Source: a virus (lineage: Duplodnaviria > Heunggongvirae > Uroviricota > Caudoviricetes). Taken from it: a stretch of DNA of 63,885 nucleotides. Positions 33,001 through 39,000 of the stretch are shown here, in pieces; the stretch's first letter is position 1; each line of letters starts with the position of its first letter. A program made the position numbers. The stretch lies in IMG/VR virus record IMGVR_UViG_2718218139_000008; one strand, 5' to 3'.

Positions 33001-36000
33001 TCCTCGCTGATACGCAATTGCAACAATTAAACGGTAATGATTACCTTTTATGTTGAATACCACGCGCCGGTTTTTCAATATACTGGCCGTTCGGTATTGT
33101 GCCTTAATGTCTGCCGGGCTTTTCCAGTCAGCTTTTGCTGCCTCATCCACCCATGCCCTTAGCGGTTGTTCTGCATCAGGATTCTCCGCCCAAAAATCCC
33201 TGAGTGTTTTAACTGAGATGATCTTCATAACTGTATGTTAGTCCCGTTTTGGGACTAATTCAACCGTCCTTAACTACAAATTTAATGATAAAAATATTGA
33301 CCAGTTAAATTTTAATTTGTAGATTGTATCCATCAACCCACCCCGCCCCACAGAACGCAGGGCAATACCTAGAGTTACCCGGCAGTGGTCAGGGGTTAAG
33401 TAGCCAGCCCGAGGCGTATGAACATGACGGCGGGAACACTTTGTATAACAGCGCAGCAGGTTTCAGTTCCGCTACCCCGGCGTTAAGGGGAAATGAGGTC
33501 AACATGTATACGCTCAATCTTGGCAACAACGAATCTCTGGTATGCGGTGTGTTTCCCAACCAGGACGGTACCTTCACCGCGATGACGTATACCAGAAGCA
33601 AAACGTTTAAAACTGAAGCTGGCGCGCGTCGCTGGTTAGCAAGAAACTCTGACTGATGAGGTTGACGATGGAATTTAAAGATTTACCTCCTTCAATCCAG
33701 GAGATTGCAGCACACACACTTCGTCATCGTCTGAACGAACTTGCATTGGAATCGGTAACGAAAAAAGACACTGATAATATGGCTCGTAATGTGTGCGATG
33801 CGTTTACCGGATTGTATTTCTGTGCGTCTGTAAATAAACACGACTCAGAGAGTGTGGCAAATAAAATTGCAGAAACGACAGCGCAAAACATCAATACGAA
33901 ACCAACGGAAGAAGAAATTGATCAGTTTGCTCATGATGCTGGTTTAAAAAACAAGAAAGAAAAATCGCCATATGCGGGGAACATGTTTGTTTATGACAAT
34001 CTCATCAGAATTCGTGGCGAAATTCCGGCGGAATACCTGGCAAGAGTCCATCAGGCATTGCTTAAAAATCTGGAAACAGAATTATTTGATGGCAACACTA
34101 ACGGTTTCTTCATGGTATCAGGCCTTGAGAAAGACTGGGATGCAGAAAAACGCTGGAATGTTGCTACATGGTTATTCAGTAACAGAGCCGCTGCCCTGGA
34201 AGCTTCGGCATGTATTTGCGGCCTGTTCTTAACAGACCACAAATATAATCTGGATGTGTACAGTTATATTTACGCTGAACACGGTCCGCTCTGGATTGAC
34301 TGGTAATTATAAGGAAACACCAGCAGGGCCGCGGCGACCAACAGAACGATTAAAATCAATAATGCCATTATAAAGGACATTATTTAATTTATCGTCGAAT
34401 GCAGATTCTGTGAGCCTCAACTCTGAATGAGTTTTTAATAACCCTGATTGCCTGAGTTGATTTACCAGGCATTCAATCTGTTTTTCAATAAGCGGATTTC
34501 TTTTTTTGTTTGGCATTTTATCCTCCATTGAGGTTCTGGGTTAAAAATGGAGACCAACACGCTGTCACGTGTGGTCGTGCGCCGGACACGGATAAGAATC
34601 CGGCAACACCAGTTTACCACTGGTTAATTTTCCCTGAAAAGTCAGGGCATAACACGAAAGCGTACGGCGAAGTTCGTCTCTCTGTACTTTGTCGTTACAT
34701 TTAATTCGATCGTGCGCTTCCGGTTGTGGCAATCCGCGAAATGGCGCGGCGGTAAGTATGGCGGGGTTATTCCTTCCCCTTGAGGACACCGGGCTGTCAG
34801 GCTGACCATACGCTTAAGTGACAGCCCCGCCACAATATCCATGTGTTGTCTTTGGTGGCATCAGTTCGACTCCGTGACTGCTCTGCCGCCCTTTTTAAAG
34901 TGAATTTTGTGATGCGGTGAATGCGGCTAAGCGCACGCGGAACAGTTAAAACCGTAAAGGGGTCTTTTACGGGGCGTAACGGGCATACTTCTGTATTCCG
35001 GCGTTAATTGTTAACTGGTTAACGTCACCTGGAGGCACCAGGCACTGCATCACAAAATTCATTGTTGAGGACGCGATAATGGAAACGTTATTACAGAACG
35101 TTAATACGTCTGAAGGGTGTTTTGATATTGGTGTTCTGCTCAGTAACCGGGAGTTTACTGAAGATGCCATTAAAATGCGGAAATATGAACCTTATCTTCT
35201 CAATGATAATTCCATACTTTCCAGAATTGCCCTTATTGAACTTGGCATTTTCGGAGAGCGGAAATGACATCAGCGTTTGCACTGGTGATGACGGTTTTCC
35301 TTATAACGGGGGAGCCACAGAATGTGATTACCGGAATTTATTCCAGTAAAGAATCCTGCCATCAGGCAAGAGACGAGCAAAAACTTTCCGGTGAATGTTT
35401 CCCGTTAAAAAAAGTATCGCTGTACCTGAATAACGAAATACCGGCTGGATAACCCGCCAGCCATATTAACGCCATACCAGTTAATTAAACATGCCAGCAA
35501 TGGCAGGGATTCGTTCACCCTGAAATCTGTAATGAGGTTAAAACACAATGAGTAAAGTCTTTATTTGTGCCGCCATTCCTGACGAACAGGCAATAAAAGA
35601 CGAGGGTGCTGTTGCTGTGGCCACGGCCATTGAAGCCGGTGATGAACGTCGCGCCCGCGCAAAATTTCACTGGCAATTCCTGGAACATTATCCGGCTGCT
35701 CAGGACTGCGCTTATAAATTTATTGTCTGCGAGGATAAACCCGGTATATCCCGCCCTGCCCTCGATTCCTGGGATGCTGAATATATGCAGGAAAACCGCT
35801 GGGATGAGGAGTCTGCTTCCTTTGTCCCGGTTGAGACTGAATCATATCCGATGAACGTCACTTTTGACAAGCTGGCCCCTGAAGTACAGAACGCTGTCAT
35901 GGTTAAGTTCGACACATGTGAAAACATCACCGTTGATATGGTGATTAGCGCACAGGAATTGTTACAGGAAGACATGGCAACATTCGACGGACATATCGTT

Positions 36001-39000
36001 GAAGCGTTGATGAAAATGCCAGAAGTTAACGCCATGTATCCGGAGCTTAAGCTGCATGCCATCGGGTGGGTTAAGCATAAATGTAAGCCTGGTGCCAAAT
36101 GGCCAGAAATTCAGGCAGAGATGCGCATCTGGAAAAAACGTCGCGAAGGTGAACGCAGGGAAACTGGAAAATACACGTCTGTTGTAGATCTCGCACGCAC
36201 CAGAGTTAACCAGCAGCTCACCGAAAACTCAGCAGCAAAAATCAACCCTGTCACTGCTGCCATTCGTCGCGAATACAAGCAGACATGGAAAACAATGGAT
36301 GAAGAGCTGGCTTACGCTCTCTGGCCTGGTGATATTGATGCCGGAAACATTGACGGCAGCATCCATCGCTGGGCAAAAAATGAAGTTATCGACAAGGATC
36401 GCGAAGACTGGAAGCGTATCTCTGCATCAATGCGCAAACAGCCTGATGCACTTTTATACAGCCGTCAGACTATTTTTGGCCTTGTCCGTGAACGTCCGAT
36501 CGACATTCATAAAGATCCCGTGGCGCTGAACAAATACATCACTGAATACCTGACTACAAAGGGCGTGTTTGAAAATGAAGGAACAAATCAGAGCACAACT
36601 AATACTCTCCCGTCGCCAGTACCAGAAGCTGATGCAGTGGAAACGGCAATGCCGGACAACGAAAAAACCGAATGCGAAGTGGAAGCCGAACCATCTGTAG
36701 AGCGTGAGGGACCGTTCTATTTCCTCTTCACCGACAAGGATGGCAAAAAATACGGTCGCGCAAACAAACTTTCTGGTCTGGATAAGGCGCTGGCTGCCGG
36801 GGCTACTGAAATCACGAAAGAAGAATATTTTGCCCGCAAAAACGGTACATACACGGATTCACAACAAAATACTGATGCATCTGACACGACCGCACAACCA
36901 GACCTGGTAAAAGTTACCGCTGACGAAGTAAACAAAATTATGCAGGCAGCCAGTATCAGCCAGCCTGACGCTAATAAGTTGCTCGCTGCATCACGTGGTG
37001 AATTTGTTGAAGGGATTAGCGACCCGAATGATCCGAAATGGGTTAAGGGGATTGAAACCTGCGATTCTGTGAACCAGAACCAGCAAGAAACGGAACAGAA
37101 CGACCAGAAAGCAGAACAAAACAGCCAAAATGCGTTACAAGACGAGCCAGAAACGAAACAATCCGAACCAGTAGCGCAACAGGAACCGGAAAAAGCCTGC
37201 ACAGCCTGCGATCAGACCGGCGGCGGCAACTGTCCTGACTGTGGCGCGGTGATGGGCGACGCAACATACCAGGAAACATTCGATGAAGAGAATCAGGTTG
37301 AAGCTCAGGAAAATGATCCGGAGGAAATGGAAAGTGCCGGACTCCCGAACAAGGAGTGCACCGAAGGCGATCAACATGCCAATGACAATAATGAAACAGG
37401 CGAGACAGCAAATTCCTTAATTAAGATGAACGGTCATCATGAAAACACATCCACCAGCAGGTTGTGGCACCATCTGATGATTGACCTTGAAACAATGGGA
37501 AAAAATCCTGATGCGCCAATAAACGCTCTGGCCGGTAAGTTTTTTGATCCGACAACCGGAGAGATGGGACCAGAATTCAGCAAAACCATCGCTCTGGAAA
37601 CTGCTGGCGGAGTCATCGACCGTGACACAATTAAGTGGTGGCTGAAACAGTCACGCGAAGCACAATCCGCCATTCTTACCGATGAAATCCCGTTGGATGA
37701 CGCACTGCTGCAGTTCAGGGAATTTATCGAGGAAAACTCCGGTGAATTTTTTGTTCAGGTCTGGGGAAATGGAGCCAACTTCGACAACGTGATTTTACGC
37801 CGTTCATATGAACGACAGGAAATCCCCTGCCCCTGGCGTTACACCAACGATCGCGATGTAAGAACGATGGTTGCTCTGGGACTGGTGATGGATTTCGATG
37901 CCCGCAACGTCATCACATTTGAGGGTGAACGCCATAATGCCCTGCACGATGCACGTTACCAGGCAAAATACGTTTCAGCTATCTGGCAAAAACTGTTCCC
38001 GAATCAGGCTGATTTTTAATGTTCAACCGTCGCCGGTTGTGGCTGGTATTCTGCAACCGGCGCTCATCTGATGTAAGAGATAAAAAGCGATGAACGAAGT
38101 AATCATGATTGTCTCTCCCGGCAAATGGGTATCCGAAGAGCAACTAATAGCACTGAAAGGAATAAAAAAGGGAACGCTAAAAAAAGCCAGGGAAAAATCG
38201 TTTATGGAAGGAAGGGAATATAAGCATGTCGCTCATGACGGTATGCCATGGGATAACAGTCCATGTTTTTACAACCTGGAAGAAATTGATCGCTGGATTG
38301 AGCGCCAGGCATCGGCAAGACCAAGACGTCATCTTACTTGACTAAAAGCAACACTAACCAATGAGGGAAGCTGAAATGAAATATCCTACAGGAGTGGAAA
38401 ACCATGGTGGGAAATTACGTATCTGGTTTGTTTATAAAGGCGTAAGAGTCAGGGAAAATCTGGGGGTTCCTGACACAGCAAAAAACAGACGCATTGCAGG
38501 TGAGCTACGCGCGTCTGTTTGTTATGCAATAAAAACCGGTGTTTTCGACTATGCAAAACAGTTTCCATCATCACGCAATCTGGAAAAATTTGGTGAGGCC
38601 AGGCAAGATTTAACCATAAAAGAACTGGCTGAAAAATTTCTGGCACTGAAAGAAACCGAAGTCGCAAAAACATCACTCAACACATACCGTGCCGTCATCA
38701 AAAATATCCTGAGCATAATCGGCGAAAAAAATCTTGCATCGGCGATTAATAAAGAAAAACTGCTGGAGATACGTAAAGAACGTAAGCGTACAGCCTGAAC
38801 CGTCTGGTCAGAATCTGACGAATTAGACAAAGTGGTGTCCACCAAATAAGTAGTGGGAACCAAAGTATCAGATATGCAGAAAAATGTGACTCCCGGCAGG
38901 CGAAAAGGCTGCCCTAATTATCCTCCCGAATTTAAACAGCAGCTCGTTGCTGCCTCCTGTGAACCCGGGATATCCATCTCAAAACTTGCTCTTGAAAATG

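Follow-up and report, generated by a model that had tools for sequence, protein, structure and literature searches.

The exonuclease gene and its operon

We analyzed a 63,885-nt stretch of viral DNA (IMG/VR record IMGVR_UViG_2718218139_000008, Caudoviricetes; hereafter "the window") with respect to a long open reading frame (ORF) in the early-left operon of a lambdoid prophage. This ORF runs without interruption from ATG to stop at positions 35548-38019 of the plus strand and encodes 823 amino acids (aa), as seen in the ORF list of the window and as the first-pass annotation of the sequence had stated. A GAGG ribosome-binding site lies about 10 nt 5′ of the start codon. The gene represents an intact YdfE-type exonuclease gene and is the last protein-coding gene of a dicBF-type operon. 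It directly precedes the excisionase (xis) and integrase (int) genes, in the exo slot to which the first pass had assigned it within the early-left operon.

On the 5′ side, the operon is arranged in the order Cro/DicC-like gene, cI/DicA-like repressor gene, an inserted HigBA pair, ydfA, a 216-aa ORF, DicF, dicB, and ydfD. The putative repressor gene of the operon (32119-32517, plus strand, as for the following genes) was recognized by an HTH_3 match and by its position, which equals that of dicA in the Qin prophage and in phage Tritos. The DicF small RNA (sRNA) gene (34840-34891) matched Rfam RF00039 with 51.3 bits (gathering score 48). The cell-division inhibitor gene dicB (35079-35267) matched PF05358 (E = 1.3e-34), and ydfD (35264-35452), which encodes a DUF1482 lysis protein and lies immediately 5′ of the 823-aa gene, matched PF07358 (E = 2.6e-16). 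On the 3′ side, the excisionase gene (38090-38341; PF06806, E = 1.6e-31) is followed by an N-terminal integrase fragment (38361-38798; Arm-DNA-bind_2 in the identical public context), which is interrupted by an IS66-family insertion sequence (IS) element at 38853-41186 carrying IS66 transposase domains.

The order DicF, dicB, ydfD, 823-aa gene, xis, int is that of the Qin prophage of E. coli K-12. YdfE of K-12 shares 93% identity with the 823-aa protein over the 255 aa surviving in K-12 and has dicA, ydfA, DicF, dicB, and ydfD as neighbors, but the K-12 gene is a pseudogene cut by IS2, without the linker and nuclease head, whereas the copy in the window is intact. Judged from these similarities, the ORF is the full-length form of ydfE, derived from a Qin-type lambdoid prophage of E. 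coli. The same arrangement was found in the plaque-forming or induced phages Tritos, PhiR42_1, and vB_EcoS-640R1, and the gene is kept in the functional phages Tritos, mEp460, and PhiR42_1.

The dicBF operon, which includes ydfE, is repressed by DicA, and its only characterized members are DicF, DicB, and YdfD (PMC10448788). In a promoter scan, no plus-strand promoter-like site was detected between ydfD and the 823-aa gene, with overall no more sites than in shuffled sequence. Since the operon including ydfE is DicA-repressed and no such site follows ydfD, we infer that the gene is expressed early in lytic growth.

The protein is already catalogued and represents an extremely common prophage gene rather than an unannotated one. 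PHROG 2082, a profile of 823 positions, corresponds to exactly this protein (match 1-823/823). A 100% identical protein is public in GenBank (e.g. AOM53328.1), recorded from E. coli assemblies and labeled "3′-5′ exoribonuclease" or "exonuclease". Membership of the YdfE family was indicated by orthology to K-12 ydfE and by the Pfam domains YdfE_N (PF27430) and YdfE_C (PF27432), which, like a Rv2179c-like domain, are precomputed matches on the identical public protein. Many phage records call homologues of the protein exodeoxyribonuclease VIII. Close copies spanning 80% or more of the gene were present in 3510 of the 5426 complete E. coli genomes, at a median of two places per genome. Literature searches on Rv2179c, ydfE, and dicB/ydfD with exonuclease returned no functional study of the 823-aa protein.

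The C-terminal head

A DEDDh 3′-5′ exonuclease domain of the Rv2179c-like or T4 DexA type was assigned to aa 641-813 (37468-37986, plus strand) by Pfam, phmmer, and a family profile. PF16473 was matched over its complete length (model positions 1-177/177; E = 1.6e-60; 204.3 bits at a cut-off of 27). Three DnaQ-type motifs, from which the first-pass annotation had derived a DEDDh assignment, are all located within this match: DLET (aa 646-649), WGNGANFD (aa 739-746), and HNALHDA (aa 796-802). They provide a complete catalytic set, namely D646 and E648 (Exo I, D-x-E), D746 (Exo II), and H796 and D801 (Exo III, H-x4-D), and these five positions are invariant or nearly so across the family alignment. 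The DEDDh assignment was thereby borne out at the sequence level. The same holds for the statement that the nuclease is not of the PD-(D/E)XK type of lambda Exo or RecE, given the PF16473 match, the matches to DexA described below, and the lack of a PF12684 hit. We assign the catalytic domain to the DEDDh 3′-5′ exonuclease class with high confidence.

When the PDB was searched with the single sequence (phmmer, E ≤ 1), only 8KEL (E = 1.2e-5) and 8KEN were retrieved, which are phage T4 DexA and its S87A/D90A mutant, respectively (PMC12153337). A family profile of 14 diverse members matched 8KEL over the whole domain at E = 4e-19 and gave a weak match to a DnaQ, too. The structure of Rv2179c was retrieved neither by the single sequence (E ≤ 1) nor by the family profile (E ≤ 0.01). 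In the alignment to 8KEL, D646, E648, D746, H796, and D801 pair with D7, E9, D119, H186, and D191 of DexA. The catalytic residues of DexA are given as D7, D119, H186, and D191 in the corresponding paper (PMC12153337), which also names an "E12" at odds with the numbering of the sequence.

T4 DexA is a DNA 3′-5′ exonuclease with a preference for single-stranded DNA (PMC12153337). Both it and the 823-aa protein are phage-encoded members of the DEDDh subfamily with all catalytic residues aligned. DexA, however, is a stand-alone protein of 227 aa with extra loops, whereas the domain studied here forms the C-terminal head of a much longer protein. Furthermore, W152 of DexA, which takes part in the recognition of 5-hydroxymethylcytosine (5hmC), is replaced by Thr (RYTNDRD); the aligned residue is W, V, H, or Y in relatives.

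A second point of comparison is EcD, a DexA homologue of E. coli described as the anti-T4 defense "HREX" and reported to protect E. coli from T4 (NAR 2025, PMC12153337). The EcD forward primer given in that paper matches a 193-aa "3′-5′ exonuclease" gene in 26 complete E. coli genomes, and the primer-matched protein is 38% identical to aa 641-816 over 185 aa (E = 2e-36). Like the gene in the window, EcD is an enterobacterial prophage gene located in an early region. It differs in being a stand-alone protein of 190 aa in a P2-like prophage; moreover, EcD lacks the Asp equivalent to D90 of DexA (Ala in EcD) and keeps the Trp, whereas in the 823-aa protein the Asp is kept (PLDD) and the Trp is gone. 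The 823-aa protein has neither of these two traits, on which the paper bases the 5hmC-specific form; the loss of the Asp marks a dimer-only form. One EcD-matching gene (L004:5989-6570) has a ParE-like gene and a Dam methylase gene on its flanks and lies, next to nadA, within the early part of a P2-like prophage. The native role of EcD may be a phage function rather than host defense. Rv2179c of M. tuberculosis, the founder of PF16473, is a small stand-alone exoribonuclease and belongs to the same family, whose model the head matches end to end.

Scaffold, linker, and putative zinc knuckle

An AlphaFold2 (AF2) model covering aa 1-440 was built from 35 sequences, with a mean predicted local distance difference test score (pLDDT) of 79.8. 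Three folded units were predicted with confidence: (i) a YdfE_N-type domain at aa 1-205 (35548-36162, plus strand; pLDDT ~90), to which the 93% identity with K-12 YdfE applies; (ii) a helical middle module at aa 245-340 in the YdfE_C region (36280-36567, plus strand; pLDDT ~90), which is homologous to RecE ~295-368; and (iii) a small beta/alpha mini-domain at aa 388-432 (36709-36843, plus strand; pLDDT ~88), marked by invariant alignment columns. Confidence was low between the folded units, most clearly at aa 345-384.

The ratio of nonsynonymous to synonymous substitution rates (dN/dS), computed per module against the homologue of phage Tritos, was 0.07 for aa 1-205, 0.18 for aa 245-340, 0.03 for aa 388-435, 0.08 for the putative zinc knuckle, and 0.13 for the nuclease head, but 0.4-0.6 for the linkers. 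Purifying selection acts on the folded modules (dN/dS 0.03-0.18) and is relaxed in the linkers, a pattern that agrees with the AF2 folded units over aa 1-440. Within the scaffold, conservation is strongest in the mini-domain. Its motif ER.GPFY...GRANK...EI..EEY is near-invariant and specific to YdfE-type scaffolds, being missing from Rac RecE and from relatives with a PF06630-type N-terminus.

The segment at aa 436-640 (36853-37467, plus strand) forms an acidic, Q/E/N-rich linker, with dN/dS of 0.4-0.6 outside its Cys4 part. In aa 506-550 and 567-640, D+E account for 24% and K+R for 4-7% of the residues, and Q reaches 24% in aa 506-550. The Q/E/N-rich segment reported at the first pass is therefore confirmed by composition, and it is acidic as well. 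Its composition and relaxed selection suggest that the linker is disordered; aa 436-440 are the part of it inside the AF2 model. The dN/dS of the long linker fits a flexible tether; in the protein, a long, flexible, acidic tether would thus join the nuclease head to the folded scaffold.

A Cys4 knuckle, CTAC-DQTGGGN-CPDC, is embedded in the linker at aa 551-565 (37198-37242, plus strand; dN/dS 0.08). The motif had been noticed at the first pass with a spacing of CxxC-x9-CxxC. Its presence stands, but the spacing requires correction to CxxC-x7-CxxC (C551-x2-C554-x7-C562-x2-C565). Rac RecE has a knuckle with the identical x7 spacing at its aa 541. Apart from Rac RecE, the Cys4 motif was found only in those representatives that closely match this linker module, and thus cannot be counted among the core features of the family. 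Judged by the 60% identity with genuine Rac RecE, neither knuckle nor linker is peculiar to the 823-aa protein.

Relation to RecE and exchange of heads

Several results connect the protein with RecE of the Rac prophage. The NCBIfam RecE model (NF007259, equivalog) matched aa 219-625 with 250.3 bits, far below its cut-off of 1269, and the match spans only the non-catalytic model positions 243-602 of 877. In a BLASTP comparison with RecE of Rac-SA53, aa 436-621 were 60% identical to RecE 428-611, including the knuckle and the Q/E/N-rich linker, and a weaker match joined aa 262-336 to RecE 295-368. Both are large modular early-left prophage proteins encoded in the same slot before xis and int, and both combine a helical middle module with an acidic linker bearing CxxC-x7-CxxC (60% identical over ~190 aa). 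The N-terminal region of RecE is likewise of unknown function (PMC11611040).

The differences concern the two ends of the protein. Rac RecE has a C-terminal PD-(D/E)XK nuclease (PF12684) and a PF06630 (Exonuc_VIII) N-terminal domain, neither of which gave a Pfam match in the 823-aa protein; PF06630 is also present in the sister DEDDh proteins P0004, P0006, and P0014. The predicted polarity of the 823-aa protein is opposite (3′-5′, as compared with 5′-3′ for RecE), and its gene is not followed by recT. A tblastn search with the RecE C-terminus found no match anywhere in the window. The first-pass annotation had set the protein apart from RecE-type nucleases. Such a separation from RecE holds for its catalytic and N-terminal parts, but not for aa 436-621, which are 60% identical to Rac RecE, nor for the region of the NF007259 match (aa 219-625). 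On these alignments, the protein is in part a RecE relative, and lies outside RecE only in its catalytic and N-terminal parts.

The hits of a first homologue search were all near-identical fragments from E. coli. When 1.8 billion representative proteins were searched exhaustively, 10184 relatives were obtained, the long ones of which were given Pfam scans and a local module map. The long relatives have two N-terminal types, the YdfE type as in the 823-aa protein and the PF06630 RecE type, with the middle module common to both. A DEDDh head occurs on both types (on the 823-aa protein and on P0004, P0006, and P0014). In vB_EcoS-640R1, a DEDDh head is carried by an 813-aa protein that shares 46% identity with RecE over residues 50-611. 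A RecE-type PD-(D/E)XK head is found on the scaffold in Rac RecE and P0019, and a further head of unknown type in P0010.

A recombination partner gene, considered at the first pass as a possible neighbor, was not found in the window, where RecT was searched for. At eight DEDDh-headed loci (the window, Tritos, PhiR42_1, 640R1, and four genome loci), neither RecT nor a RecE C-terminal domain nor the ~290-aa head described below, which resembles a single-strand annealing protein (SSAP), was detected, and no annealase or Gam is annotated in the complete genome of phage Tritos. Conversely, a locus on a contig of a metagenome-assembled genome (L013, ~10001-14010) encodes a YdfE_N-type scaffold whose RecE-type PD-(D/E)XK head shares 85% identity with the C-terminus of Rac RecE, and recT (56% identical) follows directly after this gene. 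In these loci, partner presence tracks the type of head and not the type of scaffold. The scan of genome contigs gave seven loci, which are too few for statistics on partner genes.

The ~290-aa head is common in Klebsiella and Enterobacter (82 of the 119 proteins of one hit set). It contains a Rad52-like motif, KKSLTDAxKKALSxLGF. Sub-threshold matches to PF04098 were obtained for seven of 11 members (best E = 4.6e-5). An hhalign comparison with an approximate RAD52 N-terminal sequence was topologically coherent but statistically weak (E = 0.019, probability 2.5%), and a profile search of the PDB with this head gave no match. At one locus (L005), its gene neighbors are a weak Gam-like gene and a Sipho_Gp157 gene. 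The head may represent a Rad52-like annealase, so that the proteins carrying it would be fusions of scaffold and annealase. We also noted that such YdfE-scaffold proteins of Klebsiella, Enterobacter, and Salmonella prophages (e.g. L005:5650-7986) are named "exodeoxyribonuclease VIII", while they have the ~290-aa head instead of a nuclease domain; this name is probably wrong for them. The overall pattern suggests that many "exodeoxyribonuclease VIII" annotations are wrong.

Possibly, the N-terminal region of RecE and YdfE is a general delivery platform for DNA-end enzymes, on which lambdoid prophages swap heads, i.e. PD-(D/E)XK nucleases (with recT), DEDDh nucleases (without a partner), Rad52-like annealases, and at least one head of unknown type. 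The DEDDh form would then correspond to a RecT-independent early-lytic pathway acting on 3′ ends. We offer this generalization tentatively and regard it, taken as a whole, as somewhat unlikely. If true, the DEDDh-headed form, carried by roughly two out of three complete E. coli genomes, would define an unstudied pathway, and a handle would be gained on the long-unexplained N-terminal half of RecE.

Proposed function

We consider it reasonably probable that the 823-aa protein is an early-lytic, RecT-independent 3′-5′ DNA exonuclease built on a RecE/YdfE scaffold. The protein consists of four parts: (i) the YdfE_N domain; (ii) the helical module shared with the middle of RecE, together with the mini-domain; (iii) the acidic Cys4 tether of ~200 aa; and (iv) the DexA/Rv2179c-type DEDDh head, which stands in the place of the PD-(D/E)XK 5′-3′ nuclease of RecE. 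According to our proposal, once the repressor is lifted, the protein would be made together with DicB and YdfD during early lytic growth. The head would strip nucleotides from free 3′-OH ends of DNA by two-metal hydrolysis, while the N-terminal scaffold may position or oligomerize the enzyme, as the equivalent region of RecE presumably does. Unlike RecE, the enzyme would act without a dedicated annealase. By analogy with DexA and with the company that the scaffold keeps, DNA is favored over RNA as the substrate with moderate confidence. As for its biological role, the enzyme may trim 3′ ends during recombination or repair, scavenge host DNA in the manner of DexA, or serve some other purpose; our confidence in any of these is low.

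Several points weigh against this proposal. The active site of the head was mapped by sequence alignment to 8KEL, and the searchable literature yielded no biochemical or genetic data for any member of the family. The YdfE_N domain (aa 1-205) had no structural match in the PDB or BFVD, so the role proposed for the scaffold is a guess. The link between head type and recT comes from a handful of loci. RecA and annealases make use of 3′ tails, which a 3′-5′ exonuclease would remove, and a role in promoting recombination is therefore not obvious. Finally, the Pfam family is named for an exoribonuclease, so RNA may be the substrate after all.

This last point leads to an exoribonuclease like Rv2179c, which would trim or degrade host or phage transcripts, or RNA products of the DicF operon, during phage development. 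PF16473 is described as a 3′-5′ exoribonuclease domain, PGAP labels many copies accordingly, and the processed sRNA DicF is encoded in the same operon. We nevertheless hold this to be unlikely: sequence searches led to a single solved relative, the DNA exonuclease DexA, the family profile did not recover Rv2179c from the PDB (E ≤ 0.01), the scaffold bears DNA-recombination heads elsewhere, and the EcD-like relative is reported to be active on DNA (PMC12153337). The same relative raises the question of whether the protein could be a prophage-encoded anti-phage "HREX" nuclease that destroys the 5hmC DNA of superinfecting T-even phages. The similarity of the head to the EcD-primer-matched protein (38% identity, E = 2e-36) and the protection from T4 reported for EcD (PMC12153337) are in line with such a role, but it is quite improbable given that W152, needed by DexA for T4 DNA, corresponds to Thr, that the Asp whose loss is the defining change of EcD is kept, that PADLOC gave no match, and that the operon is repressed in lysogens (PMC10448788). 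For EcD itself, tests were made only from a plasmid, and its gene belongs to the early part of a P2-like prophage.

An anti-defense enzyme could alternatively remove immune nucleic acids with free 3′ ends, such as the multicopy single-stranded DNA of retrons, complementary DNA of reverse-transcriptase defenses, or linear oligonucleotide messengers. Circumstantially, early-lytic expression, the lack of a recombination partner, and the very high prevalence in E. coli prophages would be compatible with this. We consider it highly improbable, as no homology to known anti-defense proteins was found, the scaffold is common to recombination proteins, and the locus points to no particular defense system. 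Least probable of all is a true RecE-type exodeoxyribonuclease VIII that resects 5′ strands to feed an annealase. The name used in phage records, the occupied exo slot, the RecE model match at aa 219-625, and the 60% identity with the RecE linker might suggest it. Domain tests on the sequence, however, exclude this reading: the 250 bits scored against a cut-off of 1269 come from non-catalytic positions, the PF12684/PD-(D/E)XK and PF06630 matches found in Rac RecE are missing, and the window contains neither a RecE C-terminus nor recT.

By itself, the gene is an ordinary one, namely an annotated prophage exonuclease of most E. coli genomes. It is of note as one of the commonest E. coli prophage genes, as the intact form of the K-12 ydfE pseudogene, and for its predicted polarity, which is opposite to that of RecE and lambda Exo in the same slot. 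The most interesting by-product of the analysis is the pattern of interchangeable heads on the RecE/YdfE scaffold. In recombineering, the non-catalytic region of RecE boosts linear-linear recombination by the full-length protein. The occurrence of this region with varied DNA-processing heads offers a comparative route to its function.

Second copy, IS elements, and further genes

A second copy of the gene was found by tblastn as two fragments of opposite strand, each ~81% identical. The fragment for aa 157-366 (58133-58774, plus strand) abuts an IS3-family copy at 58845-60001 (plus strand), and the fragment for aa 366-822 (61321-62691, minus strand) abuts another at 62729-63885 (minus strand). 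The copy in prophage B is thus split and inverted, as described at the first pass, and both of its break points adjoin inverted IS3-family copies. An IS insertion at codon 366, followed by an inversion between the IS copies, explains this structure. In total, seven copies of the same IS3-family element, each with a 100-aa and a 272-aa ORF and an rve integrase core, are spread across the two prophages (6198-7354, 11249-12405, 17184-18340, 41540-42696, 45378-46534, 58845-60001, and 62729-63885). A Shigella origin, considered in view of the many IS copies, was rejected, since E. coli assemblies contain the identical 823-aa protein.

The IS66-family element downstream of the 823-aa gene comprises orfA, TnpB, and a 512-aa transposase, and cuts the integrase after ~145 aa. 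Excision of this prophage through its own integrase is probably no longer possible. At the head of the operon, a HigB/HigA toxin-antitoxin pair (32564-33228, minus strand) is inserted between the cI/DicA-like repressor gene and ydfA. The 216-aa ORF (33656-34306, plus strand) is located at the position of ydfB/ydfC, where a 212-aa gene is called in identical public contexts, and had no Pfam match. Each of the two prophages also contains a 616-aa ORF on the minus strand (20059-21909 and 47011-48861). The former has DUF1737, SASA esterase, and DUF6645 domains and resembles the sialate O-acetylesterase NanS.

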